From the sequence record NZ_CP072379.1: a DNA stretch of 38,144 nt. One strand, written 5' to 3'. The notes below the pieces were generated by a model. The model did not search any database. It was not told where the DNA came from and saw only the letters and a list, made by a program, of their open reading frames with translations. The stretch is from a plasmid. The position numbers and the translations under genes were made by a program. This document shows positions 4,648 to 34,945 of the stretch, piece by piece (the first letter of the stretch is position 1; the number at the start of each line of letters is the position of its first letter).

Positions 4648-6444
4648 TCAAAAAGAAATTTTCAATGCCGTATTAAAATATATTTCCTGCTTTTTCGGAT
4701 TCAAATATTCTGAGTGTGAAATTGGCTTTGCATACCCAAAATTAAAATCTAGATACTTTGTATCCAATCTAATCCCTGCCGTAGCACCTGTCATATATCC
4801 TTTCCCGTATTTTGAACTATCATTGTTGACTCTCACATATCCATAACTGTACCCAAAATATGGTGATACAATTGCTATTTTTTTTATAGGAATATTGTAA
4901 GATATTTCATTTCCAATCTCTATTGCTTTATCCCCTGAAATTGTACTCCTATGATAACCTCCTACACTTCCAACACCTCCTATAGACTGTCTCTCGCTCC
5001 CATAGAGCGTGTCATTTGAAAAAGTTGAATAAATGTTCGCCCTATATACAAAATGCTCTGTCACGGGCTTGTAATAGCTCATATCAAGCGTATACTTATC
5101 AAATTGTGCCTTAGGAGTTGTGCTAAGCTTCCCATCATCTATCTCTGCTCCAAAAATTTTAAGCCCTTTCTCATAACCTAAATTTACTCCAAAAAGTCCC
5201 TTAAACAGAGATGTCGTATAACTAATGTTAGCTGTACCTATTGCCAGCTTTCTATTAGATAAAACTGCTCCTTCCAAGTAATTATCATTATGCTTTCTTT
5301 TAATTCCAATTCCAGCTGTCAACTTACTTTTCTGATTTCTAAAGAGTATTTTATCTAAATTCATAGAAAGCGTATGACTGGAAGTATACAGGTCATAAAC
5401 TGTATTAGATGCATAAAAACTGCTTTCCTGAATACTTTTACTCGAACCTAGTTTCATTGTATAGTCTCTGAATTTCATCGTGTATCCGAAATTAAACATA
5501 TCCATACGCCTTTTATACGGCAGCCAGTCTCCCTTTGATGGATCATACCCAATTGGTCCAATTGGCAATATTTCTCCAGGTTTTAGTTGTTCTGCTCTTT
5601 TCTTCCAGCTTCTGTCAGGCATTTTCTTAGGAACGGTCAAATATGTAAAATATACATTGTCTCCTATCCCTAAAGGACTATCGATACTAAGGCTGACACC
5701 TTTTCTCCAAATACCATCCTGCTTGTTGTCTCCGTAATTATTTGAAATTAAGCTAACAGAATATTTATTTTTAAGAATATTTTTCACTTGAATTTTTGAA
5801 GTATTTTCTTTCTTTCCAGGTAATACCTCCATTGTCATGTTATTTGCCTGTATCGAATTAAAATTTTCTGTAGCCGTGTCTAAATCTCTTATATTGAAGA
5901 TTTCCCCCTTATTTTTCTTAAACATGAAAAACTCCTTTAATTTATCAAGACCATTTTCCGAATTAATTTTAATCTCCTCTATTTTTCCTGGAATAACTGC
6001 CAAATTTAATTTCCCTGTTGTCAGGTCATTATTAGACATAACTGTTACCGTCGAAGTTGTATATCCTTTTACAATTAATTTATTTGTGAATTCTGTTAAA
6101 AGATTTGTGATGTCCGCTGAACTTAATTCTAGATCCTTGTACTTGTCAATGATTCTTGATTTGTCTTTCTTTGACAGTAATCTATTATTGTCTCTTAAAT
6201 TAATTTCAGTAATTAAAAATTTTTTAGAATTGTCAGAAGAAACTATTCCTTTAGCTTCAACATTTGAGCCTTTATCAAATTGCGTATTTTCAAACTCTGA
6301 TTGTTTTTGCTTTTGTTCTATTCTAAGCCTTTCCTGTTCCAACTGTCTTTCTTGGTTATCTAAAATCTTTCTAGCTTCATTTTCAGGAGCTGACATACTT
6401 ATAACAGAAATTAATACTGCTAAAATTACAATAATTTTGTTCAT
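4648..6444 (-). CDS. TpsB-family outer-membrane transporter (ShlB/FhaC/CdiB-like) with a signal peptide and POTRA region
   Basis: A 598-aa ORF with an ATG at 6444 preceded by GGAGGTG. The GTG at 6453 given in the ORF track lies inside the Shine-Dalgarno sequence. A signal peptide MNKIIVILAVLISVISMSAP is followed by POTRA-like and beta-barrel sequence ending in a terminal F, as in ShlB/FhaC-family activators. It sits directly upstream of tpsA. Confidence 0.85.
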   Translation of the reverse strand: MNKIIVILAVLISVISMSAPENEARKILDNQERQLEQERLRIEQKQKQSEFENTQFDKGSNVEAKGIVSSDNSKKFLITEINLRDNNRLLSKKDKSRIIDKYKDLELSSADITNLLTEFTNKLIVKGYTTSTVTVMSNNDLTTGKLNLAVIPGKIEEIKINSENGLDKLKEFFMFKKNKGEIFNIRDLDTATENFNSIQANNMTMEVLPGKKENTSKIQVKNILKNKYSVSLISNNYGDNKQDGIWRKGVSLSIDSPLGIGDNVYFTYLTVPKKMPDRSWKKRAEQLKPGEILPIGPIGYDPSKGDWLPYKRRMDMFNFGYTMKFRDYTMKLGSSKSIQESSFYASNTVYDLYTSSHTLSMNLDKILFRNQKSKLTAGIGIKRKHNDNYLEGAVLSNRKLAIGTANISYTTSLFKGLFGVNLGYEKGLKIFGAEIDDGKLSTTPKAQFDKYTLDMSYYKPVTEHFVYRANIYSTFSNDTLYGSERQSIGGVGSVGGYHRSTISGDKAIEIGNEISYNIPIKKIAIVSPYFGYSYGYVRVNNDSSKYGKGYMTGATAGIRLDTKYLDFNFGYAKPISHSEYLNPKKQEIYFNTALKISF

Positions 6445-7161
6445 CGTTTGCACCTCCTTTCAAAAAATCTATTTTTTTTTTGACTTAGAATAATAACGAA
6501 TTATACAGGAATTTCAAAAAAATGTCAAGCTTTTGATAAAACATAGAAAGAATTGTATCAAAATTTTTAATTTTTAATACAGAACTTCCTTTCAAACATG
6601 CTCTATATCCTTCAAAAAGCGGTCAGATTTAACGAAAAATAGATTTTTGGTATAAATCCTTGGGTAATGGTAAAAGAATGCGTCTATGAGCTTTATTTTG
6701 CCAAATTTTGATTATTGATATAATTCTTTTGAGAATAAGGGAACTTTTTATAATAAAAAATATTAAAAACTACATTTTGGGAATTAAAGACTACAAGATT
6801 CATATAATGTAGTTTTATTTATTTTAAATTTTATTTTTTTATATAGAGGGGCTTTTTTATATACCATTTTTATATATTACTCTTTTAATATACCTTTTTA
6901 GATGGTCGCAAACACTTGTGAATACTGGTTTTGAATACATTAAAAAACAAGAAAATCAGTAATTAAAAACAAGTTTTTCAGTAGATTAAAAACAAGCACT
7001 TGTTGGGAATTATAATATTGATTAAATATCATAAAAAATATAATGATATTTAATATATCTATTCTTTTTAAAAAAGTTTTAAAATTTTTTATATTTTAAA
7101 ACTTTTTTAAAGTTTTTCCCCCCTCGGAAAGCACTATAAAATATGGCATAGAGTATATTTT

Positions 7162-7306
7162 AAAATAACAAAAAGTCTGTATTAAATAACAAAAAGTCTG
7201 TATTAAATAACAAAAAGTCTGTTATTAAATAACAAAAAGTCTGTTATTAAATAACAAAAAGTCTGTTATTAAATAACAAAAAGTCTGTATTAAATAACAA
7301 AAAATA
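7162..7306. repeat. Iteron array for rep1: six tandem copies plus one partial copy of a 21-22 bp unit, taaataacaaaaagtctgt(t)at
   Basis: Direct tandem repeats are seen 60-200 bp upstream of the rep1 start. An AT-rich palindromic stretch precedes them at 7061-7110 (aaaagttttaaaatttttt...tttaaaacttttttaaag) and ttaaaaacaag is repeated three times at 6940-7000. This is the classic layout of an iteron-type theta origin. Confidence 0.8.
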
Positions 7307-7371
7307 TAAAAAGATATGTATTTTTGATATTTTGTATGATATAATATAGAAAAAATAAGGATGTGTAAAAA

Positions 7372-8412
7372 ATGAATAAAATTGTAAAATTTCATAATGA
7401 TTTGAACAGTATTAAATTTTCTTCTTTTAGAGCTGTTGAATACGATCTTTTTTTTGCTATTTTATATAAATTAAAAGATAAACAGGAAGAAGAGATTATA
7501 TTGACTTTTGAAGAATTAAAAAAACTTTCTGAATATAAAAAAACTCAAAATAAATATTTTATAGATTCACTAATAGAAATAAATCAAAATTTATTATCTA
7601 TCAAATTAAACTTCAAAAATTATACTGAAGGACTTTATATTGGAGCTACTTTTTTTACTTATTACGAAATAAATGAACAAGAAAAAACTTTATCAATTTC
7701 AGTAAATCGGAAATTGACTTATTTAATTAACGATTTAACAAAAAATTTTACTCAATTAGAATTAAAGAAAATGTCTCAAATGAGTAGTAAATATTCAAAA
7801 ATAATTTTTCGATTTTTGAAACAGTATGATAATACTAAAAATAATACTAATTTTTGGGAAATTGAAATAAATGAGTTTAAAGAGTTGTTAAATATTCCTT
7901 CTTCGTATTTAATGGCAAATATTGATACTAGAATTTTAAAACCTGCATTATCAGAGTTATCTCCTCTTTTTTATAATTTAAAACTTATTAAAAAGAAAAG
8001 GGGGCGAAAGATAGATCGTTTAAGATTTGAATGGAATACAGAAACTGTTGAAATGAAAAAAAAGAAGGAAAATGAACCAAAAAAATCAGAAGTTGAATCA
8101 AAAAGAAAATACAAAATCATAGAAAATACTCCTAAAGTAGAAGAAAAAGAGAAAACTTTAAGTGAACAAATTAAAGAAGAACTTGAGATGGAACAAGAAG
8201 CTTTAAATAGAAGTACCACTTTATTAGGAGCATATATTGCTGGATTAAAAGATGTAACAAATAACTCAATTATAATCGATTCTAAAAGACGTATAAACTT
8301 GAGAAAAGAGAAAATTGAAAAATTGGAACAATTTTCTAATTTGGCTGATGACGAAATTGATGAGAGTTTGGAAAAAGTGATACAGAAAGTATTGGAGATG
8401 GAGATTAAGTAG
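7372..8412 (+). CDS. rep: Plasmid replication initiator, Rep_3 (RepB/RepA iteron-binding) family
   Basis: A 346-aa ORF with an AAGGATG Shine-Dalgarno sequence. The N-terminus, FHNDLNSIKFSSFRAVEYDLFFAILYKLKD, matches my recollection of the Rep_3 N-terminal region. The C-terminus is Lys/Glu-rich. The gene is preceded by an iteron array. Confidence 0.8.
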   Translation: MNKIVKFHNDLNSIKFSSFRAVEYDLFFAILYKLKDKQEEEIILTFEELKKLSEYKKTQNKYFIDSLIEINQNLLSIKLNFKNYTEGLYIGATFFTYYEINEQEKTLSISVNRKLTYLINDLTKNFTQLELKKMSQMSSKYSKIIFRFLKQYDNTKNNTNFWEIEINEFKELLNIPSSYLMANIDTRILKPALSELSPLFYNLKLIKKKRGRKIDRLRFEWNTETVEMKKKKENEPKKSEVESKRKYKIIENTPKVEEKEKTLSEQIKEELEMEQEALNRSTTLLGAYIAGLKDVTNNSIIIDSKRRINLRKEKIEKLEQFSNLADDEIDESLEKVIQKVLEMEIK

Positions 8413-10958: not shown

Positions 10959-11915
10959 TTAAATTTCATACTTCCTAAACCAATTTTCAAAATGCTGAAA
11001 ATTACTAAATTTAAAATTTTGTAAATGGTTATCATCTACATTTTTAACAGTTACAATTAATTCCTCATTAATTTCTTTAAAATTAATGATATTTAAATAA
11101 TTATATCTCTCAAATACTTTATCTTTCATTTTTATTTTTCGATTTATATAATTAATAGCTTTTTCAGGATTGTTTACTTTAAATTCTTTTTCTAGAATAT
11201 TTCCACAAATCTCCCTAAATTCTTTTTTTGTTTCCTTTTTACCAGATTTTTTAAATCTAAACTCATAACCTGAAACTTTACTTCTTCCTCGTCCTAAAGA
11301 ATTCTTATATTTTTTGATAACTTTTAAATTAAATTCTTCTCCGAGTTCGTTCATTATTGGTTTCAAAATTTTGCTATCAATCTTGTCTGTTTTATAACTT
11401 TGTGGAATATCTAATAAGTACTTAAATTCTTCAATACTAACAATCCAAATTCCTGTGTATCTAAACTGTTTCATTCTTCGATAAAATTCTTTTGTATAAG
11501 TAGACTTAAAATTCACAAATTCTTCTAATTCAAATCTTGTAAAATTTGATGTTAATTCATTTAAGACATACTTAAATTCTTCATTTATTCCAATTGTAAC
11601 AATTTGTTTTTCAACATTAATTGTATATTTTGTAAATAAAACGAACCGAGTCCATTCAACATCATCACCTATACGAATATTGCATTTTAAAAGCTTGTTG
11701 TAAGCACTGTCTAGCGTATTTACAAAATTCTTCATATCATTGTAAGGATATTTAATTAATTTTTTCAAATACTTAAAATCAAATTCTACATACTTTAAAC
11801 CTTGGTCTCTAATTCTGCTACAAATTGATATTAATAAATTAATTTCTGTGGAATTGAATTTTCTTAATGCTACTGTATTCATATCATTATTAAATTTTAC
11901 AACTTCATTAGCCAT
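10959..11915 (-). CDS. rep: Second plasmid replication initiator, Rep_3 family
   Basis: An ATG at 11915 follows GGAGGTTTGT. The N-terminus is MANEVVKFNNDMNTVALRKFNSTEINLLISICSRIRDQGLKYVEFDF. Overall it resembles rep1 and the Rep_3 architecture. An iteron array lies immediately upstream at 12025-12152. Confidence 0.8.
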   Translation of the reverse strand: MANEVVKFNNDMNTVALRKFNSTEINLLISICSRIRDQGLKYVEFDFKYLKKLIKYPYNDMKNFVNTLDSAYNKLLKCNIRIGDDVEWTRFVLFTKYTINVEKQIVTIGINEEFKYVLNELTSNFTRFELEEFVNFKSTYTKEFYRRMKQFRYTGIWIVSIEEFKYLLDIPQSYKTDKIDSKILKPIMNELGEEFNLKVIKKYKNSLGRGRSKVSGYEFRFKKSGKKETKKEFREICGNILEKEFKVNNPEKAINYINRKIKMKDKVFERYNYLNIINFKEINEELIVTVKNVDDNHLQNFKFSNFQHFENWFRKYEI

Positions 11916-12024
11916 ACAAACCTCCAAATTTTATTTTTAAATCCTAAATTAGTAAATTCGTTTTAATTATACACCCAAAAAAATAATTTTTCAACCCTTA
12001 GGGTTAAAAATGGTGATTTTCATG

Positions 12025-13579: not shown

Positions 13580-15244
13580 TTATTTATAAGCAACTTTCAC
13601 TTCTTTCCCATGAAATGCAATCCCAATCTTCAAGATATTTTTTATCCCTCTTGCCTTTAGTTTAGTATCATATTTCTTCTCATCAATCTGTTTCAATGCC
13701 TTCTGTGCTCTCTCTTCCATCCCCTTTTTCGTCTTCGATATTTTAAATTCCATAAGGTAAGCTTTCTCGTTACTTTTTATTGGAATCATGGCAAGATCAT
13801 ATCTTCCGTATCCACTTTCATCATTCGAAATAATTTCATATTTCCCCATTAAAAATCCTACAAGCCCTATCATAAACACTTGGTATATTTTTTCCATTTC
13901 CTTGTCCAAGTCAAAAAAGCTCAGCATATTTATCATTATTTCTCCTAATGTTTCCTCAAATTTCTTGATATCTTCATTCTCAAGAGCCTTTATCAAAACA
14001 CTAGTTTTCACTTCTGTTCCAAAAAATCTGTTTAAAAACATATTACCAAAATATTTCCGTATTTCCTTATTTGGAATTCTCAAGTTATAAACATCTGTAT
14101 ATTCTGAAGTTACATCTATTTCCTTCTGTTTTTCATCTTTTGTCAAATATCCACTATATAAAAGTAATTGCCATATTTCATCATTATTATTTAAAAGACT
14201 TTTTATCGTAGTTCCATCAGAAATATATTTTTCAATGCTTTCCCCATCGGTAAATCGTTTTAAATCATCATAAACACTTTCTCCAGCATGATCAAGCATA
14301 TTTTCTAGAAGTGTATTCCCTGAAACATTTGCCCAATATGCCTTGATTTCTTTTTCTCTTACATAATTTACAATAGACCAAGGATTGTATACTTTACTTT
14401 CTCCAAAAATATATCCGTTATACCATTCTCTAACTTCTTCAATTTTGTATTTCATGTCAAAATACTCAAGCATTTCAATTACTTCATTTTCAAGAAGTCC
14501 AAAATATTCTGAATAATCCTTGCTTAAAATCGTATTTACATAAAGATTATTTAAACCAGAGAATATCCCTTCTTTTATGATTCTAGTTATTCCTGTTAAA
14601 ATACCATATTTTAACGAATTATTAGTCTTTAACGCTGAACTATAAAATGTTTGAAAAAAATTTATTGCTTCATTGTAGTATCCTTTATCAAAAGCATTTA
14701 TTATTGGAGCGTCGTATTCATCTATTAAAATTATGACTTTTTTTTCATAATACCTATAAAGACTATCTGCCAAAAATTTTAAAGACATTATGTAGTCTGC
14801 ATCTTCTTTTTCATAAAGCACTTTTTCAAATTTTTTTTTATCCCATTCATTCATTTTTTCTCTAATATACTCAAATTCAACGTATAAATCAAAAATAAAT
14901 AACTTCAATCTTTTTAAACATTCTTCCCAAGTGTCTCCTTTTAAATCCTTCAGTGAAATAAAAATTACAGGGTATTTTCCCTGTTCACTCATATATTCAC
15001 TATCAGATACTTTCAAATTTTCAAAAAGTTTTTTATTTTCTTCTTTATCTTCTACATCAAAAAAATATTTCAACATCGACATATTCAATGTTTTTCCAAA
15101 TCTACGTGGTCTTGTAAATAATGTAACTTTCGATTTATTCATTAACATTTCGTCTATTAATAAAGTTTTATCTACGTAATAATATTCATCTTGTATCAAC
15201 TCTTTAAAATCTTCAATTCCCACAGGAATAGCTTTTTTTCTCAT
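13580..15244 (-). CDS. AAA-ATPase-like protein with a C-terminal PD-(D/E)XK nuclease-like domain, of the 'predicted AAA-ATPase' family common in Fusobacteria and Bacteroidetes
   Basis: A 554-aa ORF. The N-terminus is MRKKAIPVGIEDFKELIQDEYYYVDKTLLIDEML...FTRPRRFGKTLNMSMLKYFF, with a Walker-A-like RPRRFGKT motif. In the C-terminal third, GYGRYDLAMIP...EKAYLMEFKISKT looks like a PD-(D/E)XK-like motif. Its C-terminal 153 aa and 3' flank are duplicated at 30187-30710. A 30-bp copy of its 3' end lies at 33970-33998. Confidence 0.75.
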   Translation of the reverse strand: MRKKAIPVGIEDFKELIQDEYYYVDKTLLIDEMLMNKSKVTLFTRPRRFGKTLNMSMLKYFFDVEDKEENKKLFENLKVSDSEYMSEQGKYPVIFISLKDLKGDTWEECLKRLKLFIFDLYVEFEYIREKMNEWDKKKFEKVLYEKEDADYIMSLKFLADSLYRYYEKKVIILIDEYDAPIINAFDKGYYNEAINFFQTFYSSALKTNNSLKYGILTGITRIIKEGIFSGLNNLYVNTILSKDYSEYFGLLENEVIEMLEYFDMKYKIEEVREWYNGYIFGESKVYNPWSIVNYVREKEIKAYWANVSGNTLLENMLDHAGESVYDDLKRFTDGESIEKYISDGTTIKSLLNNNDEIWQLLLYSGYLTKDEKQKEIDVTSEYTDVYNLRIPNKEIRKYFGNMFLNRFFGTEVKTSVLIKALENEDIKKFEETLGEIMINMLSFFDLDKEMEKIYQVFMIGLVGFLMGKYEIISNDESGYGRYDLAMIPIKSNEKAYLMEFKISKTKKGMEERAQKALKQIDEKKYDTKLKARGIKNILKIGIAFHGKEVKVAYK

Positions 15245-15734: not shown

Positions 15735-16742
15735 TTATATTTTTTGACAACTTTCTCTTTCTATTAATTCAATAGGTAGAAAAACTTTCTTATGATAGTC
15801 TCTTCTACCTTCTAATAATTCAACTAAAGAATTTACTGTTTCTTGAGCTATTAATTTTGTATCTATTTTTATAGTTGTCAAAGGTGGTGTATAATATTTT
15901 GATAATTTTAAATTGTTAAATCCTATTATTGATATATCTTCTGGAATTCTTAGTTTATTTTCTCTAATTGCTTTGTATGCTCCCATTGCTATTGAATCAT
16001 TTCCACAAAAAATTGCTGTTGGTCTATCTTCTAATTCTAAAATTTCTTTCATCATTGAATAACCACTTTCTGTAGAAAAGTCTCCAATTTTTACATATTC
16101 TTCATTGTATAACCCTTCTTTTAGCATTATTTCTTTAAAGTATTTTTCACGAAAATCTACTAAATTTTTTACTACTTTATTCCTTCCTACTAGTAACCCT
16201 ATTTTTTTATGATTTAGTTTTAGAATATAGTTTATAACTATTTCTACTGAGTTTTTTGTATCAAATTTTATGTAATCTATGAAATTATCTGTATCGTATA
16301 CATCTACACAAATAATATTTTTATTTAATTCTTTAAAGAATTTCAATTTTTCTTTACTTACTTCACCTATAAAAATAATTGCATCTGTAAAAGAAAAAAT
16401 TGATATCTCATTTGATTTTATCATTTTTTTTATGTCGTCTAAATTAAAAAATTTTATTTTTGAAAAAATCCTTTTTAAATTATTTTCTAAATTTATTTTT
16501 AAAGATACGAAATATGGATCATCACTTTCAATTTTTTTATCAAAACATTTTATTATTGAAATATTAGATTGTGATATTTTACTTTTATTTCTTTTTTTTA
16601 CGTAATTTAGTTGTTTTACAGCTTCTAGAACTTTCTCTTTTGTAAAAGCACTAACTTCGAAACTTTCATCATTATTTAAAATTCTCGAAACTGTTGTTAT
16701 AGAAACTCCTGCTTTTTTTGCAACTTCTCTAATTGTAGCCAT
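15735..16742 (-). CDS. LacI/GalR-family transcriptional regulator
   Basis: A 335-aa ORF. The N-terminal helix-turn-helix MATIREVAKKAGVSITTVSRILNN is typical of the LacI family and is followed by a periplasmic-binding-protein-like effector domain. It is the last gene of the minus-strand lac cluster. Confidence 0.8.
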   Translation of the reverse strand: MATIREVAKKAGVSITTVSRILNNDESFEVSAFTKEKVLEAVKQLNYVKKRNKSKISQSNISIIKCFDKKIESDDPYFVSLKINLENNLKRIFSKIKFFNLDDIKKMIKSNEISIFSFTDAIIFIGEVSKEKLKFFKELNKNIICVDVYDTDNFIDYIKFDTKNSVEIVINYILKLNHKKIGLLVGRNKVVKNLVDFREKYFKEIMLKEGLYNEEYVKIGDFSTESGYSMMKEILELEDRPTAIFCGNDSIAMGAYKAIRENKLRIPEDISIIGFNNLKLSKYYTPPLTTIKIDTKLIAQETVNSLVELLEGRRDYHKKVFLPIELIERESCQKI

Positions 16743-16813
16743 TTTTCTCCTTTTTATTAAAAAATTTTACTGTAAAAAGGGGATAACTAAAACTATCCCC
16801 TAAAAAAACTCTA

Positions 16814-18259
<1,446 letters not shown>

Positions 18260-18279
18260 TTAGTATTAAAATACATTAA

Positions 18280-19983
18280 TTAATCTTGAAATTGTTTTTG
18301 TACAAAATCTAATGCACCTTTACCATCACGAGTCAATTTAATATACTGAGCTCCTTCAGTTTTAGCTAATTTAATTCCTAATTTATCAGTTTCTGCTTTC
18401 ATATCTTCAAAATTTGATGCAACTTGTGGTGCAAGAATAACTAAATCAAATTCAGGAAGTATTTCACGATGTGCACCATACCCACCTGCTGCAGCTTTAA
18501 CAGGAACATTAAATTCTTTTGCTGCTTTATTTAAAGCGTTAGCTAGAAGTCCACTTGTTCCTCCACCGGCACACAATACAAGTACATTTGTTTCTTTTGT
18601 TATATTATTTTTAACAGCCTCAGTTTTTTCAACACCAGCTTTTTTAAGAATATTATCTGCTTTTTCAGTATTAAAGTTAGCAGCTACTTTATCTTTTAAT
18701 TCGTTATTTGTAGTTCCTAGACGTTCTTCTTCAAGAATTTGTTTATCGTATACTTTTATGAATGGATAATAAATAATAAAGTCCACAACTACTAAAAGTG
18801 CCGCTAAAACAAATGATAATATTTGAAGATTTGTTCCCAATATTATTCCCAATGGTCCTGGAGTTGTCCATGGAAGGTTAGCAGTAAAGCTGTTCATTCC
18901 AAGCACATCTATAAATATTTTAAAAATCCAAACATTTACTATTGGTGCAAAGATAAATGGTATAAAGAATACTGGATTTAATACAATTGGAGCACCAAAT
19001 AAAAGTGGTTCATTTACACCAAAGAATGTAGGTACTACAGAAGCACGTCCAATAGCTTTATTTCTCTTAGATTTACAAATCCACATAAACATAAATGGCA
19101 CTATTAAAGTTGCTCCAGTTCCTCCCATTGTAACTATAAACATTTGTGTTCCTGAAGTTAAGATTTTATCCGCATGTTGTCCAGCTCTCATAAGATTTAA
19201 GTTTGCATCTATATTAGCATAAGTAACAACTGCAATAGCTGGTTCTACAATTGAAGGTCCATGAATTCCAACAAACCAGAAGAACGCAAAAGCTCCAAAG
19301 ATAATAGTAATTCCTACATATCCATCGGCTGCTGAGAATAATGGCCCAAAAAGTTTACCTACTGCTTCTGCAACTCCTGTACCAATAAAATGACGTACAA
19401 GAATGTCAAGAACGTAAAGTGATACAACTGATAAAGTAAATGGTATTACATCTTTAAAAACTTGTGAAATATTAGGTGGAACTTCTGAAGGCATTTTAAT
19501 AGTTACTTCATTTTTTATACAAAATTTATAAATAGTTACAGTTATAAATGATGCTAAAAATGCAGTTAAAAGTCCTTTTGTCCCCAAGAATCCAGTTGAA
19601 AATCCATCTTTAGTGGGATCTGCTGCTAACAATAACAAACCAACCATCGAAGCTAAAAGTGTAGAAATATAATTAACTTGATTAGTTGCTGGCATAGAAC
19701 GATTTACAGAATCTGTTAAAGATTTAGCTGTTGTTCCAGCTACTAAAAATGCTAAAATTCCCATAGAATAGCTGTATGGTTTCATTAATAAAGCTTCTAT
19801 ACTTTTTGGCCAAAAAAATCCAAAAGCATTTGGAACATAAGCAATTAAGATAAAAATACTAGAAAATAATATAACGGGCATCCCAGCTATAAAACCATCC
19901 CGAATCGCTCTTAAATATATATTCCGAGATAATTTTTCAAAAAAAGGTTTCCCTTTTTCTATAAATTCAATCAGTTTTTCCAT
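18280..19983 (-). CDS. lacE: PTS lactose-specific EIICB component
   Basis: A 567-aa polytopic membrane protein with a C-terminal IIB domain ([23 protein letters not shown]). Its start overlaps the lacF stop (TAATG). Confidence 0.9.
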
Positions 19984-20300
19984 TACTTTGCTCCTCTTTT
20001 ATATAATTCTATTAAATGTTTCATTAATTCTTTCAGTAATATTGTTGTCATTAAATGGTCTTGTCCATGAACCATAATGAAACTTATTTCCAAATTTTCT
20101 CCAGCTGATTCTTTAGCTAAAATATCTGTTTGTGCATTATGTGCACCAACTAAGCATTCTTCAGCTTCTTTTACTAAGTTTTCAGCTTCTTCAAATTCTC
20201 CATTTTGAGCTTTATTTAATGCAATCATTAATTTAGATCTTGCATCTCCTGCATAAGCTACTATTTCAAATCCAACCATTGTTACATCTTCTTTAGTCAT
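19983..20300 (-). CDS. lacF: PTS lactose-specific EIIA component
   Basis: [24 protein letters not shown]...[28 protein letters not shown] closely matches my recollection of staphylococcal LacF. The start at 20300 follows GGAG with a 9-nt spacer. The longer start at 20351 in the ORF track is unlikely. Confidence 0.85.
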
Positions 20301-20440
20301 AGTGATTTTCTCCTTTTCAATTATTATTTGGTTATTTATACGTATTTGCAAAATACAATTGTTTTTATTTGTAACAAGGGGTAGACTCCCCTTGCTAATA
20401 CTACTGTTTAATTTTTTTATTACATATAATTTATATTATT

Positions 20441-21418
20441 TTATTTTTCTTTCCAAGATGTAGCAGTTTTTGCAACTACTTCATTTAATTCTTCAATATT
20501 TTTTCTTCCAACTGTATTTAACCAGTTTACTGTAGCTTCTTCTCCGTCTTTTGCGAATACTTCTACTCCATTTGCCCAAGTTGCTCTTCCACATAATACT
20601 CCATTAAATTTAGCTCCTGAATCATGAGCGAATTTCAATGTATCTTGGAATAATTTTGCACTAACTCCAGCACTTAAATAAATGTATGGCAAGTTTGTTG
20701 CTTCATCTTGTTGTTTGAAATAGCTTGCTGCTTCTTCTTTAGTATAAACAACTTCTCCATCAGCAAATCCTTCAACATATTTCATATTTACAGGAACCTC
20801 TACTTTCAATACATCTACGTTATATCTTGGTTTAGAGAATTCTTTCATTGCTTCGATAACTTTTCTTGGTTTCAATTTTGCAAATTCTGCTGTGCTGTTG
20901 TCAGCATCTTTGTAGTTGTAGCTTAAAATTTCTAAGAAGAATGGAATATCTTCAGCTACGCATTCAGCTCCAACTCTTTCCATGTATGCTCTCTTTTGAT
21001 TGTTGATTTCATCACTTTCATCTACGTCATAGTATAATAAGAATTTTACAGCATCTGCTCCTTCTTCTTTTAATCTTTTTGCAGACCAGTCAACAAGGCA
21101 ATCTGGCAATCTTCCAACTGCATTTGCATCATATCCAGTTTTTTCATAAGCTAATAACAATCCTGCATTTTTATCTCTAGCTTTTGCTGCATCCAATCCA
21201 TATTCAGGATCTAACAAGATTGAAGAAGAGTATTTTGTTAAATGTTTTGAAACTAATACTTTAAATTCTTTTATTTGTTCAGCTGTTGCTTCTGAAGCTT
21301 GATGTTTATTCAACATTTTTTTCAAAGCTCCTCTTTGGTCAATTGCTAAAGCTGATATAAATCCATTTTCATCACTTAAATTTTCTAAATATTTTCTTTT
21401 TTGTGCTGTTAATTTCAT
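20441..21418 (-). CDS. lacD: Tagatose-1,6-bisphosphate aldolase
   Basis: A 325-aa ORF of the LacD/DeoC-like class I aldolase type. It sits in the lacABCD position. Confidence 0.85.
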
Positions 21419-21654
21419 GTTTTTTTCCTCCTAAAAATATTAATAGTTTTGTTAATACTTGTATTTTGTTAAATATTATTTTTATATACAGTCATTATTT
21501 CAGTACTCTGAACTTTAATTTGTTTTCCAGCTTTCAGAAATTTTTTTAATTTATTAGCTTTTTTATTTGTGAAGGAATTCAATCATATTTTTTAAATTTT
21601 GAAAGCTGGAAGCAATTTTTAATAACTATAGTATCTTCACTAAAAAAATTTTGA

Positions 21655-22593
21655 TTATAAATTAATAATTTCAATTTTTTTAAATAATTCTTCATATTTA
21701 TCTAAATTCACAAACCCCGTTAATTTTTCCATTGCATTTAACATCCCAAGGACATTTGCCTTTCTTAATAAAGTTTCATCACTCGCATTTTCATGAATTG
21801 CTGATGTTATTCCTGCAACTGTTGAATCTCCTGAACCTACAGGATTTACGACTTCTATTTTAGGAACATTCACTTTATAAAATTTATCATTGTGTTTTGC
21901 AAAAGCTCCATCTGCTCCAAGTGAAACAATTATCCATTCAATTTTTTCAAATAATTTATCTTTTAAAATTTCTTTTAGTTCATTTGGATTTTTAGATACA
22001 TCTTTTCCAATTAATTGAGACAATTCTTCTGTATTAGGTTTTATTACTTTAGGTTTATAATTATTTTTTAAAACTTCTATTAGTGCTTTTCCTGAACAGT
22101 CTAATACAACTGGTTTTTCATATTTTTCACAGATTCCAATCATTTTTGAATAATAATTAGTTTCCAATCCATCTGGTAAACTTCCTGAAATAGCGATAAT
22201 TTTAGTATTTTCATTTTTTACTAATTCTTCGAAGTGCTTTAAAAAATTTTCACTTTCAGATTTTGTTATAGTTGGCCCTTTTTCTAAAATTTCAGTTTGA
22301 TTCCCTTCATGCAAAATTGCAATACAGTTTCTAGTTTCCCCTGAAATTTCAAAAAAATCATTTTTAATTCCTGTTTGTAATAATTTTTCTTTAATATCAG
22401 TTCCTAAAGCACCACCTATAAGTCCAGTTGCAACAACTTCATCATCTAATTGTTTTAATACTCTTGTAACATTTAAGCCTTTTCCACCAGGAGTTTTACT
22501 AACCTTAGCTACTCTATTTACAGTATCTAAATTAAATTCTTCCAAAGGATATGAAATGTCAACAGAGGGATTCATTGTTACTGTTAAAATCAT
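21655..22593 (-). CDS. lacC: Tagatose-6-phosphate kinase (PfkB family)
   Basis: A 312-aa ORF with the PfkB-family C-terminal motif [11 protein letters not shown] (aligned with the second PfkB motif, which normally ends DTxGAGD) and GG-containing N-terminal region. It sits in the lacC position. Confidence 0.85.
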
Positions 22594-24013: not shown

Positions 24014-24760
24014 TTAAATAATTAGATTCGTATATTTTTCAATATTATTTAAAGTTTTATTTTCTACAGTATTAGTTACAACTCCAGTTAATTTATCTAA
24101 TGTATAAAAATTTATAAAATCTATTTTTTCCATTTTTGAATCATCAACTAACAAATATTTTTCTTCTGAATTATTTAAAACAATTTCTTGAGTGTAACTT
24201 TCTTCAAATGTAGAAGTCATAATATTATTTTCTTTTATTGCATTGCAACTAAAAAATGCTTTATTAAAATTTGTATTTTCTAGTATCATATTCGCTATTT
24301 CTCCTACAAATGATTTTGTTATTTTTCTAAATTCTCCTCCAACAAGAAATACGTTAAAGGTTTCACTTTTTTTTGAAAATAAAATTTCAAAAATAGGCAA
24401 ACAATTTGTTAATACTCTTAATGATTTAAGATTGATTTCTTTTGCTAATAATTCTACCGTAGTTCCAGGACCTAAAAAAATTGTATCTCCTTCTTCGATT
24501 AATTCTAAAGCTTTTAATGCTATTTCTTTCTTTTTTTCCACATTTAAAACAGATTTATCCTCATGAGATAATTCTTTATATTGGCTTTTGGCTCCTCCAT
24601 GTATTCTTTTTAATATTCCTAATTCTTCTAGTTCTGTAAAATCACGTCTTACTGTCATATCAGAAACATTTAAACTTTCTACTATATCAGAAACTCTAAC
24701 TGTTCCTTTTTGTTCAATTATTTTTGTTATTGCTTCTAGTCGTTCTTCTTTACTTAGCAT
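24014..24760 (-). CDS. lacR: DeoR-family lactose operon repressor
   Basis: A 248-aa ORF with an N-terminal DeoR helix-turn-helix (EERLEAITKIIEQKGTVRVSDIVESLNVSDMTVRRD) and a C-terminal sugar-phosphate-binding domain. It lies upstream of lacA as in the staphylococcal and streptococcal lac operons. A terminator-like hairpin at 23926-23968 separates it from the lacA promoter region. That region carries a 10-bp inverted repeat tttgtttact...agtaaacaaa (23805-23880). Confidence 0.85.
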   Translation of the reverse strand: MLSKEERLEAITKIIEQKGTVRVSDIVESLNVSDMTVRRDFTELEELGILKRIHGGAKSQYKELSHEDKSVLNVEKKKEIALKALELIEEGDTIFLGPGTTVELLAKEINLKSLRVLTNCLPIFEILFSKKSETFNVFLVGGEFRKITKSFVGEIANMILENTNFNKAFFSCNAIKENNIMTSTFEESYTQEIVLNNSEEKYLLVDDSKMEKIDFINFYTLDKLTGVVTNTVENKTLNNIEKYTNLII

Positions 24761-25156: not shown

Positions 25157-27142
25157 TTATCTTGAATTTATAAAATCTTTAGTATTTTTTTTGATTTTCT
25201 TGATTGTGTTAGTAATGACTTTTTTGAATATTTTAAATTTCTTCTTTAATTTATTAAGTATTTTTTCCATATTGGATAGACATTCATTTTTTTCATCATA
25301 TTCATAATTGTAGTAGCTATAATCTTCAGCATAATTTAGTATATCGAATACTTTGTTATTATCTTCGTCCTCTTGACTTTCTAAACCTTTCAAAAGCGTT
25401 ATTTCACTATCTTCTATGTCGTTATTTTCAAAAATTTCCACAGCATTATCAATTCGATCAAATGTTTCAAATTCAAACTTTCTGTAAAGATTTTTATTGA
25501 ATTGAAATGGAAAATCATTAATAACAAAATCTTTATTCTTTTTTATTTCATTGTAATGATTCAAGATTAACTCTTCTTTTACTTCATCTTCAATCTCTTT
25601 AATTTCTTTATCGCTTAGCGAAACTTTCTGGCGAATTTGTTCTTTTAAATTTTCAATTTCAGTTTTCTGATTATTAAGAAGCTCTTGTTTTTTAGCTAGA
25701 TGGTTTTTTTTAAGTTGTTTTAGCTCAATTTCGAGCTTCTGTTTTTCATTAACGTTAATCATATTGAGCTCTAATCTTGCTGTATTGATATTTTGATTTA
25801 ATAGAGCATTTTCATTTTCTAATTCTTGTTTTTTTACTTTAAGCTTTTCTATATCTTCAGAGAGAACAGTTTTTAAATCATTGAATGTACTTTTAAAGGC
25901 AGCTCTGGTATTTTTATCTAAATTCTTTAAAAAATTATTTAAATTGGCGTCTAATGATTTTAACTTTTCAACTGCATTATCATTTATAGAAAAATTACCA
26001 TCTCTAATTATTTCTTGTGTTTTTAAATATTCTTTTTGATATTCCTCAAATGTCATTTCTGATTTTCTTTTAATTTCTAATTCCTTTAAGTTCATTTGTA
26101 ATAATTCATCGAATTCAATCTGATTCATTTGTTTGTTATTAAATTTTTCAATAAGTTGTTTTTTTCGATAATTTATTTTATCTCTCAAATCTTTTAAATT
26201 TTCTGCATTTTTATAATTACTATTTTCTAAAGTTTTAACGATTTCTATTTTATCATCCAAAATTTGTTCAGCGATGTTTTTAAATTTTGTAAATTCATCT
26301 GTTTTAGATATAAAGTCAACAAATTGTTGGTGTACGTCATCTTTAAAAAAATTTATTAATTTATTACAACTTTGATCATAGTAATATTTTTTAGTTCTTT
26401 CTTTTTTATTAACTTTATCAATCATTTTTTCTGACTGTTTTTTGTAGTTTTTTTCTATATAAAAATTTTCAAAATCTTTATATTTATCAAAATTTTTAAT
26501 GACATCAAAATTCTGTAAGTCAAACAGTTTACAAAAAGCTATTTTGTCATTAACTTTTTTGTCAATTTTATGAAAATTTTTGGTATCAATCTCAAATTTT
26601 TTTAGTTGTCTCGCACATCTTGTTTTTAATGTTTTTATTATTCTCAAATTTTTATTTTTTATTATTTCAGAGTCACTCATTTTTTCGTTTATTTTTCGTT
26701 GGGCAAACATTGTATGCATATGAAGATTATCCTCATCACGATGTACTACACAATACACAATATTTTCTTCTTCCATATTTAATTTTTTCATTAAAAATTT
26801 TAGATTATTTTCGAAATATTTTTTTATTTCTTCTTGAGTTAAAATCATGTTTAAATCAATATTTGTTTTATTATTTAATTCAAGTTCCCGTATGTTAATT
26901 TTACTTAAAAAACATACAATATCTTTAGAATTTTGTTCAACTTCAACATCATTAAATTGTTCATTTAGAATTTCTTCATTAAAATCTCGAATTTTAATAT
27001 TTAGAGTACTCAAATTTTTATTAACATTATTTGCATAATTTTCAGAGACTCTTGTAGCTTCATTTACATAACTTTTTATCGTATTTTTTTGCTTAACACT
27101 TGATAAAGTTGTAGCTTTATTTAAAAAATTTAACTGTATCAT
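25157..27142 (-). CDS. mob: Mobilization relaxase, Mob/Pre (MobV) family, with a long coiled-coil C-terminal extension
   Basis: VVHRDEDNLHMHTMF around residue 130 fits the MobV HxDE...PHxH metal-binding motif. The C-terminal roughly 450 aa are heptad-like and Lys/Glu/Asn-rich. Candidate oriT inverted repeats lie immediately upstream. Confidence 0.7.
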   Translation of the reverse strand: MIQLNFLNKATTLSSVKQKNTIKSYVNEATRVSENYANNVNKNLSTLNIKIRDFNEEILNEQFNDVEVEQNSKDIVCFLSKINIRELELNNKTNIDLNMILTQEEIKKYFENNLKFLMKKLNMEEENIVYCVVHRDEDNLHMHTMFAQRKINEKMSDSEIIKNKNLRIIKTLKTRCARQLKKFEIDTKNFHKIDKKVNDKIAFCKLFDLQNFDVIKNFDKYKDFENFYIEKNYKKQSEKMIDKVNKKERTKKYYYDQSCNKLINFFKDDVHQQFVDFISKTDEFTKFKNIAEQILDDKIEIVKTLENSNYKNAENLKDLRDKINYRKKQLIEKFNNKQMNQIEFDELLQMNLKELEIKRKSEMTFEEYQKEYLKTQEIIRDGNFSINDNAVEKLKSLDANLNNFLKNLDKNTRAAFKSTFNDLKTVLSEDIEKLKVKKQELENENALLNQNINTARLELNMINVNEKQKLEIELKQLKKNHLAKKQELLNNQKTEIENLKEQIRQKVSLSDKEIKEIEDEVKEELILNHYNEIKKNKDFVINDFPFQFNKNLYRKFEFETFDRIDNAVEIFENNDIEDSEITLLKGLESQEDEDNNKVFDILNYAEDYSYYNYEYDEKNECLSNMEKILNKLKKKFKIFKKVITNTIKKIKKNTKDFINSR

Positions 27143-31645: not shown

Positions 31646-31651
31646 AAAATT

Positions 31652-32284
31652 TTAAGTTAAAGATTTAATTTGCTCCTCAATATCTCTAATTTCTTCTCTT
31701 ATCTTTTTTATCAAGTGTTGCCTTTTTACTTTTTCTCTCGTTAAAAAAATTCTTCTTTCTTCCACATCTGATAACTTTACTGCTTCTTTCTGTTCTTCAA
31801 TTTCTTTTAATTTTAAACTTGGATTATCTGATTTTATTACTTCTATAATTTCAGTTTCTTGAAAGTTTTCTTTTTTATGCCCTGTTAAAGTTTTTACAGT
31901 TCTGTTAGGTAATGTTAAAACCTTCTCTGGTTCTTCAAGTCCCTTAGCTTGATATTCTAAATATAATGAATATTTTCTTATTGCTACATTTGCACTGTCT
32001 CTATCTATACCTAATTTTTCTATCCATTTTCCAAATGACCCATTTCCTTTATTTGAAAAAATTTGATTGGCTTCAAATATTGCTTTTGAATATTTAAAAA
32101 TATGTTCCATTGACTTTTCTTTATGGAATGTTATGTCGTTTTCATATTTTATAAGCTCTTCTTTTTCTGTTCCTGATATATCAAGTTCTTCATAATCTAT
32201 ATTATAAATACTTTCAATCTTTGCTACTACAGGAACTTTCTTGCTATTAATTTTACTAAGATCTAAATTAAATTTTTTGCTCAT
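31652..32284 (-). CDS. Putative partition adaptor or centromere-binding protein (ParB-like partner of ParA)
   Basis: A 210-aa charged protein whose start overlaps the parA stop (ATGA). Its position and size fit a plasmid ParB/ParG-like partner. I do not recognise a diagnostic motif. Confidence 0.45.
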   Translation of the reverse strand: MSKKFNLDLSKINSKKVPVVAKIESIYNIDYEELDISGTEKEELIKYENDITFHKEKSMEHIFKYSKAIFEANQIFSNKGNGSFGKWIEKLGIDRDSANVAIRKYSLYLEYQAKGLEEPEKVLTLPNRTVKTLTGHKKENFQETEIIEVIKSDNPSLKLKEIEEQKEAVKLSDVEERRIFLTREKVKRQHLIKKIREEIRDIEEQIKSLT

Positions 32285-33021
32285 TTTATCCCCTCTTTTT
32301 TTATCATTTCTTTTGCTAAGCTACTATAATCTTTTGCTCCATTTGCATTTTTTGAATAATCAAATATTGATTGATGTGTAACAATACATTCCGATAAAGC
32401 CACATTTTTTCTTATTATACTTTTTAGTAAATAATCTTTATATTCTTCTTTCAACTGTTCCTGTATTTGTTCCGACAATGCTGTTTTTTCTTTTCTAATT
32501 AATATAATTCCCGATATATCTTTTCCCAATCCTTTTGTAAAATTAATCGTAGCATTAAGTCCTAAAAGCTCATTTATTCCAGGTAAAATTACAGGATAAA
32601 CACTTGAAGTGTAAATTGCTGAAGTCGTATACGCATTAAATGCTGGAGCGGTATCAAATATTATAACATCATAATTTTCTGATAGATTTTCTAAAAAATT
32701 ATTCAACAGTTGATAATAATATGGTCCTTGATTTCTTAATTCTTCCATATCTTTTTCTGCTTCAGTCCCAGCACTTATTAAATATAAATTTTTATTTAAT
32801 TTTTCGGGTTGAAAGTCATTTGTTCTTTCAAGTAAATAATCTCCTAACGAAAAATTTAATTCATTAACATTTATTCCAAAATTTGTAGAAAGATTTAACT
32901 GCGGATCAGTATCGATTGCCAAAGTTTTTAATCCCTGCTTTGAAAAATAATGTGCCAAATTAAAAACCGTTGTTGTTTTACCACAACCACCTTTATTATT
33001 AACTATTGCTATTTTTTTCAT
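32281..33021 (-). CDS. parA: ParA/Soj-family partition ATPase
   Basis: MKKIAIVNNKGGCGKTTTVFNLAHYF is a deviant Walker A motif (KGGxGKT). The ATG at 33021 follows AGGGAGG. It is about 247 aa long. Confidence 0.85.
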   Translation of the reverse strand: MKKIAIVNNKGGCGKTTTVFNLAHYFSKQGLKTLAIDTDPQLNLSTNFGINVNELNFSLGDYLLERTNDFQPEKLNKNLYLISAGTEAEKDMEELRNQGPYYYQLLNNFLENLSENYDVIIFDTAPAFNAYTTSAIYTSSVYPVILPGINELLGLNATINFTKGLGKDISGIILIRKEKTALSEQIQEQLKEEYKDYLLKSIIRKNVALSECIVTHQSIFDYSKNANGAKDYSSLAKEMIKKEGIK

Positions 33022-33095
33022 AACATCCTCCCTAAAAATAAATTTTTTTATCACTTTTAGTATAACATTATTTATAAAAAAATCAATTTTTTTAA

Positions 33096-33117: not shown

Positions 33118-33186
33118 CTGATTTTTTATTTCTGAATGTAAAAAAAATCAAAGAAAATCATAAATTATCTTCAGTTTTTCCCCTAC

Positions 33187-33828
33187 TTATTTTAAAATAC
33201 TATCTAAATTTACAAGTTTGCTATTGATATCTGAAAAACTCAAGTTAGCATAAATTAAAGTATTGTTTATATTTTTATGACCAAGAACTTTCTTTAATTC
33301 TGCTAATGATAATCCAGCGTTTAGTAAATGTACTGCTCGACTGTGACGGAATACATGCGTATGTGCAAACTTCTTATCAATTCCTAACTTTTCAAATAAA
33401 CGTTTCATGTATCTATTTGTGTGATTTTCATCAGCTCTTCCTTTTCTAGAATTTCGTGCAATATAGTCTTTACTTGTTAATCCCAAATGTAGCTGCTGTT
33501 CTAGTAATAGAGCATAAAGTTCTGATGACATAACAATTTCCTTGTAATCCTTAAATTTTTGTTTTGAGTTATTGATTTTTGCCACTGTTAGATTTTTCCC
33601 CCTGTAATTAATTTTCTGTATATCACTATACTTTAAGTTAACTACTTCATTAATTCTTGCTCCTAATTCATATAGTAATGAAAATACTACTTTGTAATTA
33701 AGACTTGCATTTTCAATAATTTTTTTTATATCTGATTCACTAAGATATTTAACCTTTTCTTCTTTTTCATCTTTTTCATCATCTATAAGAATTATATCAT
33801 TTCTATTTTGTATAAAAATATCCTTCAT
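33187..33828 (-). CDS. Short tyrosine recombinase (catalytic domain only, 213 aa)
   Basis: GARINEVVNLKYSDI carries the catalytic Arg I. HTHVFRHSRAVHLLNAGLSLAELKKVLGHKNINNTLIYANL carries the H-x-x-R, His and Tyr nucleophile motifs. There is no N-terminal core-binding domain. Confidence 0.75.
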   Translation of the reverse strand: MKDIFIQNRNDIILIDDEKDEKEEKVKYLSESDIKKIIENASLNYKVVFSLLYELGARINEVVNLKYSDIQKINYRGKNLTVAKINNSKQKFKDYKEIVMSSELYALLLEQQLHLGLTSKDYIARNSRKGRADENHTNRYMKRLFEKLGIDKKFAHTHVFRHSRAVHLLNAGLSLAELKKVLGHKNINNTLIYANLSFSDINSKLVNLDSILK

Positions 33829-34096
33829 TTTAGTTCCTTTCTATAAGGAATTTTTTTTTTTATCTCATACCTTATTAATAATAATTATATAATATAAATT
33901 ATCAAAAAACAATATCAATTTTAGAACTTAAAACAAAAAGGTATGAAAATAATTCATTTCCACACCTTATTTTAAGCCTCAATTTATAAGCAACTTTCAC
34001 TTTTTCTGTTCAGATTATTAAATATATAACTATATTTTAACAGAAAAATTTTTTTTTAGCCATAACAAAAACCTCCAAATATTATATAGTTGTTTT

Positions 34097-34141
34097 ACCA
34101 TATATTATATTTTGAATTTACACAAAATTATGGACACTCTC
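34097..34141 (+). repeat. Junction element taccatatattatatttt followed by a 28-bp unit gaatttacacaaaattatggacactctc
   Basis: Matches 8468-8513. It lies about 290 bp upstream of the recombinase gene start, and both are on the same side of the module. Confidence 0.65.
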
Positions 34142-34223
34142 GCATCTCCTATTTTATGTCCGATATTTTGGATATATTTCAACAAAAAATCATCTGATTT
34201 TTTAGATAATTGTTTATAGAACT

Positions 34224-34403
34224 TATTTTTCTATCCTTTTTATTAGTTTACCTTTGATATAAATTTCTTCTGCTATTATTTTTCCATTCAAATTATATTC
34301 CTTACATAATCCACAAAGTCTTTCTTTTTCATCAAAAGAAACTTTAAATACAACTTTTTCATTTTTCCTTCTAATGCTATTTCTGAAAACTATATTGTTT
34401 CAT
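34224..34403 (-). pseudogene. Frameshifted small ribbon-helix-helix-like ORF
   Basis: MKQYSFQK is followed, after a frameshift, by NSIRRKNEKVVFKVSFDEKERLCGLCKEYNLNGKIIAEEIYIKGKLIKRIEK. The KVSFDEKERL...EYNL pattern resembles a ribbon-helix-helix DNA-binding protein of the CopG/MobC/antitoxin type. Confidence 0.25.
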
Positions 34404-34429
34404 TTCTACACTCTTTTATGAATACTCTC

Positions 34430-34945
34430 TCAATAATAGGGAATTTCAATATCATACCATCTTTTAAACCTAATTCCGATTTTATCTATAATAAATTCTG
34501 TTTCTTGATTTTTTAATTTTTTATTTTTAATAAATATCTTAAACTCAAAATAATTTCTATCGTATTCATAAAATCTTGTCCTAATTTTTTTATATATCTT
34601 TTTTTTATCTAAAATTTTTTTTAATTCTTCTTCTGATATTTCATATGTACAAAAACGCTTCTTCTCAAAGCATTGTAAGTTGTCTAAGTTTTTATTTACT
34701 AAAATTTCTCCTAATTTTTTATTATGATATATTATTTCAATTTTTTCCAATATATACTCCCTATTTAATTGTGGATCAAGATAAATGGAAAGATAATTAT
34801 CTTCCACTAACAAGTTATCAACCTTATTATTTTCATTTACTGCAAAACTTTTACTAATTCCAGCTAATTCATAATTTCCAAAATCTTTAAAATATATAAA
34901 AACTAATATAAAAATTGATATTAAAATTACAATTTTTTTTCTCAT
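34430..34945 (-). CDS. Small exported protein directly coupled to the tpsA 3' end, a candidate CdiI-like immunity protein
   Basis: A 171-aa ORF whose ATG immediately follows the tpsA TAA (TAAATG). The N-terminus MRKKIVILISIFILVFIYF is a signal peptide or membrane anchor. I do not recognise a family. Confidence 0.5.
   Translation of the reverse strand: MRKKIVILISIFILVFIYFKDFGNYELAGISKSFAVNENNKVDNLLVEDNYLSIYLDPQLNREYILEKIEIIYHNKKLGEILVNKNLDNLQCFEKKRFCTYEISEEELKKILDKKKIYKKIRTRFYEYDRNYFEFKIFIKNKKLKNQETEFIIDKIGIRFKRWYDIEIPYY

Follow-up and report, generated by a model that had tools for sequence, protein, structure and literature searches.

A putative contact-dependent inhibition-like toxin/immunity locus on a Leptotrichia plasmid

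Contact-dependent growth inhibition (CDI) has been worked out almost wholly in Proteobacteria. For CdiA, both the domain order and a set of pre-toxin motifs (VENN, (E/Q)LYN, WVHN, TENN, LYVT, DAMV, NEALV, and LPEN) have been published (PMC9086364). The CdiA toxins reviewed so far are mostly nucleases or ionophores, and a 2022 review called the release step of the CdiA C-terminal toxin poorly characterized (PMC9086364). Type V secretion system (T5SS) polymorphic toxins of fusobacteria were catalogued in 2012; in the T5SS row of that catalogue, the pre-toxin domains are DUF637 and PT-VENN, and HINT is the sole releasing protease (PMC3482391). For CDI in Leptotrichia and Fusobacterium, we found only such catalogue-level bioinformatic mention in the literature and no experimental work. 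Here we analyze a tpsB-tpsA locus on a circular plasmid of 38,144 bp (NZ_CP072379.1, hereafter the window, meaning the whole stretch). Judging from its sequence, the locus very likely (probability about 0.85) encodes a plasmid-borne, CDI-like type Vb polymorphic toxin/immunity system.

Like the CdiBAI systems of E. coli and other Enterobacteriaceae (CdiA classes I to IV), the locus has the order B-A-I, with an Omp85 TpsB carrying two POTRA domains. Its TpsA resembles CdiA in having a TPS domain, repeats, a central non-repeat region, FHA-2 repeats, a pre-toxin region with a boundary motif, and a variable C-terminal domain (CT). As in CdiBAI, the (here putative) immunity gene abuts the stop codon and orphan CT/immunity modules occur, here in relatives of the locus. 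Plasmid-borne examples are also known from E. coli EC93 (PMC8190604). The first-pass annotation described the locus as E. coli-type, which is apt for the gene order only: the host is Leptotrichia, a member of the Fusobacteriota.

Locus layout and TpsA architecture

The three genes, tpsB, tpsA, and a 171-amino-acid (aa) open reading frame (ORF171), follow one another on the minus strand, where the first-pass annotation had placed them. tpsB (4648-6444; ATG at 6444, stop at 4648-4650) encodes a 598-aa CdiB-like Omp85 transporter with a signal-peptide-like N terminus and Pfam matches to ShlB (E-value [E] 6e-53), POTRA_2 (E 6e-16), and POTRA_3 (E 2e-9). The cdiA-like tpsA starts with a TTG at 4595, has a GGAGG ribosome-binding site ahead of it, and encodes 2,597 aa within a stop-to-stop frame of 2,613 codons. 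It runs in frame across the window origin (base 1 to base 38144): the 5' part (1-4595) encodes aa 1-1531 plus 2 nt, and the 3' part (34946-38144) encodes aa 1532-2597 plus the stop codon (34946-34948). The earlier suggestion that the locus wraps the origin was thus borne out, both by the reading frame and by a metagenome contig (L009) whose homologue aligns without a break over the junction. The same contiguous homologue rules out an assembly artefact at the origin. We also discarded the idea of a chance ORF because 2,613 open codons (7.8 kb) stand in DNA of 27% GC. The putative immunity gene, ORF171 (34430-34945), begins with an ATG directly after the tpsA TAA, so that the proposed cdiB-cdiA-cdiI layout (TpsB, a TPS-domain TpsA, and a 171-aa ORF abutting the tpsA stop) was recovered in full.

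tpsB, tpsA, and ORF171 appear to form one operon, lying between a consensus-like promoter and a terminator-like hairpin. The promoter-like site (TTGACA-17-TATAAT; 6500-6528, minus strand) agrees with the sigma-70 consensus at 12 of 12 positions, a consensus match only, and is ~56 nt upstream of the tpsB ATG. The hairpin, which is followed by a T-run, lies downstream of the locus (33938-33968, minus strand; 1 found versus 0.1 expected).

TpsA consists, in order, of a TPS domain, β-helix repeats, a central non-repeat region, FHA-2 (filamentous hemagglutinin-type) repeats, a conserved pre-toxin region, and the variable CT; it contains no cysteine in its 2,597 aa. The TPS domain (PF05860) spans aa 30-283 (3747-4508; E 7e-48). 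The N terminus also matches TIGR01901 (adhes_NPXG) and, among PDB sequences, Fha30 of FhaB and HpmA (E 1e-28 to 1e-31). The FHA-2-type repeats (Fil_haemagg_2, PF13332) lie at aa 1821-1987 (36779-37279, minus strand; E 8e-15). The profile searches proposed in the first-pass annotation had a divided outcome: the TPS, Fil_haemagg_2, and ShlB/POTRA models matched, but PT-VENN (PF04829), DUF637 (PF04830), and PT-TG gave no Pfam match at E ≤ 0.1, either with whole TpsA or with its last 497 aa.

Part of the central non-repeat region (aa ~1056-1188; window 1032-1430, minus strand) has no DNA alignment with the otherwise collinear L009 homologue. This segment is a candidate variable receptor-binding region, comparable to the receptor-binding domain of CdiA.

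Polymorphic C terminus and cassette exchange

Using the last 497 aa of TpsA as the query, we obtained 845 relatives, which include two contrasting groups: in one, the alignments span 91-100% of the query with 50-78% identity; in a larger one, they reach over just the first ~50%, with 85-90% identity. A boundary motif, DGKDYSNVDFGENVGD (aa 2335-2350; 35690-35737, minus strand), which contains FGENVGD, was shared by 119 of the 120 best-matching homologues, and straight after it the sequences could not be aligned. We clustered the tails that follow the motif in these 120 homologues and found at least 12 unrelated CT families. Known toxin domains among these CTs are Ntox50 and PT-TG together with GH-E; an orphan module of L007 carries EndoU. 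Because the tails diverge at DGKDYSNVDFGENVGD, we assign aa ~2100-2350 (35693-36442, minus strand) to a conserved pre-toxin region and aa 2351-2597 (34949-35689, minus strand; about 248 aa) to the polymorphic toxin domain. The first-pass annotation had suspected a polymorphic toxin in the last ~500 aa; this applies to the last ~248 aa, and the ~250 aa before them are conserved pre-toxin sequence. We regard DGKDYSNVDFGENVGD as a functional analogue of VENN; ENVG is not among the CdiA pre-toxin motifs listed in PMC9086364.

Pre-toxin identity among relatives is 72-95%, whichever CT comes next. Identities of CT and next ORF, by comparison, rise and fall together. Relative to the window, L007-L009 have 85-88% identity in the pre-toxin region, 96% in the CT, and 99% in the next ORF; the corresponding values are 72, 81, and 76% for L001, and 84, 42, and 40% for L002. 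In L003 the pre-toxin region is 91% and the CT 31% identical, with no detectable similarity in the next ORF, while L019, a Fusobacterium metagenome-assembled genome (MAG), has 34% identity in the CT and 24% in the next ORF (E 1e-4). L006, whose CT is of the GH-E type, combines a 94.5% identical pre-toxin region with an unrelated CT and an unrelated next ORF. Indeed, each different CT family is followed by its own, unrelated next ORF.

Upstream of the motif, the DNA is 68-89% identical to that of L007-L009; this value rises to 98-100% between ~35693 and a point ~74 nt beyond the ORF171 stop. This step at the motif is the signature of a toxin/immunity cassette swapped by recombination; the cassette with 98-100% DNA identity to L007, L008, and L009 occupies 34356-35692 (minus strand). 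Toxin and immunity genes thus appear, from the sequence comparison, to constitute a cassette that recombines at the pre-toxin motif FGENVGD. This is the behavior that the first-pass annotation had predicted for the CT and its downstream ORF among homologous loci. The outcomes it had named as unfavorable were a conserved C terminus, a downstream ORF that fails to co-vary, and an adhesin- or hemolysin-type C terminus; we saw none of them.

Relatives (L002, L003, and L007-L009) also carry arrays of orphan CT/immunity modules that start within the FHA-2 or pre-toxin region; each orphan module has its own small ORF, and SUKH and Imm49-type immunity genes are close by. The window contains no intact orphan CT/immunity module, and the interval between ORF171 and the recombinase gene holds no intact ORF, only fragments. 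One of these, a stop-interrupted stretch at 34226-34399 (minus strand; NNIVFRNS...CKEYNLNGKIIAEEIYIKGKLIKRIEK*), has a weak match to MORN_2, a YwqK-antitoxin-like repeat (E 0.0045, below cutoff), and is possibly what is left of an orphan immunity gene. Another, at ~33956-34147, has ~90% DNA identity to a RelE/ParE-family toxin gene of the Leptotrichia shahii plasmid NZ_AP019828.1 without retaining an intact ORF, and is apparently a decayed toxin-antitoxin remnant.

One pre-toxin copy, 88% identical to that of the window, lies on a 6.4-kb contig (L017; NZ_CALJPC010000103.1) labelled as an uncultured Campylobacter MAG. All other genome matches of the pre-toxin region are from Leptotrichia, Leptotrichiaceae, or Fusobacterium. 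The Campylobacter label likely reflects mis-binning; horizontal transfer is less likely.

Toxin domain, putative immunity protein, and pre-toxin region

The CT belongs to a small family: an exhaustive phmmer search of 1.84 billion representative proteins yielded 45 clusters at 50% identity. A profile built from the CT alignment and run against a set of 5.8 billion proteins gave 24 matches, mostly fragments, and added a chromosomal copy from Fusobacterium polymorphum, but brought no annotation. The domain is bipartite, with a variable helical N-terminal part (aa 2351-2430) and a conserved core (about aa 2430-2555). An AlphaFold2 (AF2) model of the CT (predicted local distance difference test score [pLDDT] 83, predicted template modeling score [pTM] 0.79) is helical with a small four-stranded sheet. 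Across 22 diverse members, H2464, K2480, E2489, H2529, D2533, and D2546 are invariant, and N2430, Y2431, N2465, G2487, D2502, T2508, N2510, G2541, and R2553 are nearly so. The CT is hydrophilic and contains no hydrophobic segment; together with the pattern of invariant residues, this fits an enzyme more than a pore-former.

Searches for a relative of known function returned little. No Pfam or NCBIfam toxin family matched whole TpsA, its last 497 aa, or the 22 diverse CT relatives; phmmer and family-profile hmmsearch comparisons of PDB sequences with the CT gave nothing below E 0.1; and we found no fold match for the CT, a Foldseek search against viral structures being empty. By eye, we looked in the CT for the colicin M motif (DxYDx5HR), PD-(D/E)xK, HNH, the H-Y-E of ADP-ribosyltransferases, the HD of phospholipase A2, the lipase GxSxG, and the E-D-T of T4 lysozyme. 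Because none of these patterns fits the order of the invariant residues, we assign no chemistry to the CT.

The CT is a mobile module: in FHA-type proteins, it follows three or more different pre-toxin regions. Members of the family are also found behind HExxH N-terminal domains, in a chromosomal island of F. polymorphum (CP056004.1; L011 3000-11600). That island consists of repeated modules, each with an HExxH N-terminal domain, a conserved AEAKLVPEKDKE junction, a variable C-terminal domain, and a small ORF with multiple transmembrane (TM) segments; one of the variable domains belongs to the CT family, and neither a TPS domain nor a signal peptide was seen in the island modules. In a metagenomic protein of 424 aa (P0168), the CT core stands at the C terminus, preceded by a double-glycine-type leader (VTEEELYLINGG) at the N terminus and then a low-complexity linker. 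Such a leader suggests that the toxin domain may here be exported in the manner of a bacteriocin.

As for ORF171, its product has a single N-terminal hydrophobic/TM segment (aa 5-23) after MRKK, and the remaining ~150 aa are predicted to lie outside the cytoplasm. Only 15 clusters of homologues were found among 5.8 billion proteins, and in every locus recovered they directly follow a CT of this family. Two cysteines of the ORF171 family, Cys92 and Cys99, are conserved down to 40% identity. The next ORFs of L003 and L019 each encode one N-terminal TM segment, and the immunity candidate of F. polymorphum is polytopic. Since all immunity candidates are membrane proteins and the toxin is hydrophilic and enzyme-like, the pair points to an envelope target, which might be the periplasm, the inner membrane at its outer face or leaflet, or a substrate linked to lipid. 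We would put the odds of this assignment at about even, and consider it improbable that the toxin is a cytoplasmic nuclease or a pore-former. Such a target class is rare among reviewed CdiA toxins.

We modeled aa 2100-2352, the pre-toxin region, with AF2. The model is poor at its N-terminal end and confident over aa ~2195-2295 (pLDDT about 85-94), where a helix, a three-stranded sheet, and a long helix bearing EEGSHVIGKVEG show structural similarity to zincins. With moderate confidence, the model suggests a zincin-like fold for the core of the pre-toxin region (aa ~2195-2349; 35693-36157, minus strand), with EEGSHVIGKVEG (aa 2285-2296; 35852-35887, minus strand) on the predicted active-site helix. 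Within it, EEGSH (aa 2285-2289) resembles HExxH with Glu for the first His and so departs from the canonical motif. EE[GQL]SH is kept in Leptotrichia and other Leptotrichiaceae as well as in Fusobacterium, F. necrophorum ATCC 25286 among them. A canonical HEKAH (GHEKAHMNTYDEG) occurs only in distant Fusobacterium proteins, which have the same CT family behind a different N-terminal domain. hhalign places EE..H on the HE..H of these Fusobacterium relatives, albeit weakly (E 0.001, probability 21%) and from shallow alignments; metallopeptidase Pfam models gave no match to the pre-toxin domain at E ≤ 0.1. This pre-toxin module, which is unlike PT-VENN/DUF637, would place a protease-like fold exactly where toxin release must occur. 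A processing-type domain directly before the toxin suggests built-in release of the CT, and an active one would give a concrete mechanism for the CdiA-CT release step; nevertheless, we consider it unlikely that the domain is an active releasing protease. We are equally hesitant about a bolder combination, in which the EExxH domain cuts the toxin at or near ENVG|D in the target periplasm and the CT founds a new fold of envelope-targeting antibacterial enzymes with TM-anchored periplasmic immunity.

By analogy with E. coli CdiBAI, TpsB would export the TpsA filament, and contact with a neighboring cell would lead to delivery of the C-terminal region into the envelope of that neighbor. The toxin would then be cut off near ENVGD, where the adjacent zincin-like domain may be the cutter. 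It would most likely be an enzyme with an envelope-associated substrate, working in the periplasm or on the outer side of the inner membrane, and the ORF171 protein would shield sibling cells.

Several observations weigh against this scheme in whole or in part. The two Pfam domains that mark the pre-toxin region in proteobacterial CdiA, PT-VENN and DUF637, are missing from TpsA, and our searches provided no activity assignment for the CT. On the immunity side, the 189-aa next ORF of L003 has no sequence similarity to ORF171, the cysteine pair is missing from the 24% identical Fusobacterium homologue, and a membrane-anchored immunity protein could instead block import of a cytoplasmic toxin. 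In the pre-toxin domain the first metal-binding His is replaced by Glu, and in some Fusobacterium copies the downstream Glu is replaced by Lys; the zincin-like domain may therefore be catalytically dead. Finally, the toxicity, immunity, contact dependence, and cleavage site proposed here are carried over from related systems.

The most serious competitor concerns where the toxin works. The CT might be a cytoplasm-acting enzyme, for instance a metal-independent RNase using His/Lys/Glu/His, with its N-terminal ~80 aa serving as an inner-membrane entry domain and with ORF171 binding the toxin in transit or blocking its import. The invariant H, K, E, and H residues could accommodate an RNase chemistry of the acid-base kind, and sister CTs at the same position are nucleases (GH-E, Ntox50, and EndoU). 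The division of the CT into aa 2351-2430 and a core likewise recalls E. coli CdiA-CT, which has an entry half and a toxin half (PMC9086364). Yet all the immunity candidates have TM segments and one is polytopic, whereas immunity proteins against nucleases are typically soluble and cytoplasmic; moreover, the CT has no fold or sequence match to any nuclease, and the double-glycine leader of one relative suggests action from outside the cell. We therefore regard a cytoplasmic site of action as possible but unlikely.

Two further explanations question whether the locus delivers an antibacterial toxin at all. If it were an adhesin- or hemolysin-type TpsA directed against host cells (like FHA, HMW1, or ShlA/HpmA), ORF171 would be an unrelated membrane protein; the best PDB matches of the TPS domain are indeed FhaB and HpmA, RefSeq names the relatives "filamentous hemagglutinin," and Leptotrichia is host associated. 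We rejected this explanation, which we judge highly improbable, on the polymorphism of the C terminus and the co-varying ORF, features foreign to such TpsAs: at least 12 unrelated CT families follow one motif, and antibacterial toxin domains of known type occur in several of them; variation in the CT is closely matched by variation in the next ORF, with a step in DNA identity; and the orphan toxin/immunity arrays of relatives include SUKH and Imm49-type genes nearby. Only slightly less improbable is a decaying or inactive copy, with a dead EExxH domain, no orphan modules, a pseudogenized downstream region, and no toxin delivery. Such decay would account for the HExxH-like motif without its first His and for the presence of nothing but MORN-like and RelE/ParE-like fragments between ORF171 and the recombinase gene. 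However, none of the three genes is broken, not even the 7.8-kb ORF in its AT-rich DNA, a 12/12 consensus promoter is present, and several independent samples contain the cassette at 98-100% identity; in addition, conservation of EE[GQL]SH over both Leptotrichia and Fusobacterium argues for a selected variant rather than decay. The CDI-like toxin/immunity system thus remains our preferred interpretation.

Plasmid setting and comparison with known systems

The plasmid is Leptotrichia-like and ~27% GC. Among 72,556 plasmids compared, its sole close DNA matches are Leptotrichia plasmids, the best being from L. shahii, L. wadei, and L. hofstadii. Both Leptotrichia and Fusobacterium abound in the human mouth, and a link between Fusobacterium and colorectal tumors has been described. 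The plasmid carries a backbone gene for ParA (32281-33054), two Rep-type initiators (7372-8412, plus strand, and 10959-11927, minus strand), a tyrosine recombinase (33187-33828), and a Mob_Pre relaxase (25157-27142); given the relaxase, it is probably mobilizable. Its cargo is a lactose/tagatose-6-phosphate pathway (15735-22593, minus strand, with a further part at 24014-24760) encoding a LacI-type regulator, a glycoside hydrolase family 1 phospho-β-galactosidase, phosphotransferase system (PTS) EIIC-IIB, a LacD-type aldolase, a PfkB kinase, and a DeoR regulator. Competition locus and sugar-utilization operon thus share one vehicle: a compact, plasmid-borne, and probably mobilizable locus could spread a competition weapon along with lactose/tagatose genes. 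The plasmid also encodes a 554-aa protein (13580-15244, minus strand) with a predicted AAA-ATPase domain and a C-terminal PD-(D/E)XK nuclease domain (PDDEXK_9). A related metagenomic plasmid (L008 14884-17446) has a ParA/Rep backbone 89% identical to that of the window and an identical CT/ORF171 cassette. It bears an extra orphan module that the window lacks, composed of a 485-aa CT gene and an ORF encoding 185 aa with a TM segment.

What is new here is the pre-toxin module with its boundary motif, the toxin/immunity family, and the plasmid vehicle with its lac-PTS/tagatose operon. Unlike CdiBAI systems, the locus belongs to the Fusobacteriota, lacks PT-VENN and DUF637, uses an FGENVGD motif, and has a predicted zincin-like pre-toxin core; its CT and immunity families are uncharacterized, and its putative immunity protein is membrane anchored.

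Colicin M acts in the periplasm, and its small periplasmic immunity protein, Cmi, has one N-terminal TM helix and an extracytoplasmic domain with a Cys pair. The likeness to colicin M/Cmi is a topological analogy only: both combine a hydrophilic enzyme toxin (here a putative one) with a small single-TM immunity protein bearing an extracytoplasmic Cys pair. Sequence and fold similarity to colicin M are absent, as is the ColM motif DxYDx5HR from the CT.

Parallels also exist for the region just before the toxin. As in systems with a self-processing domain directly upstream of the toxin, the domain described here ends at the pre-toxin motif (PMC9086364), but it differs from HINT and bacterial intein-like self-processing domains in being zincin-like by its model, with a non-canonical EExxH and a putative activity. 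With respect to the releasing metallopeptidases of the PVC-metallopeptidase/DUF4157 type (Zhang et al. 2012; PMC3482391), the Leptotrichia protein differs in that its domain matches no Pfam metallopeptidase model at E ≤ 0.1 and has Glu for the first His; the arrangement that it shares with them is a small HExxH-type zincin domain, predicted in our case, N-terminal to a variable toxin.

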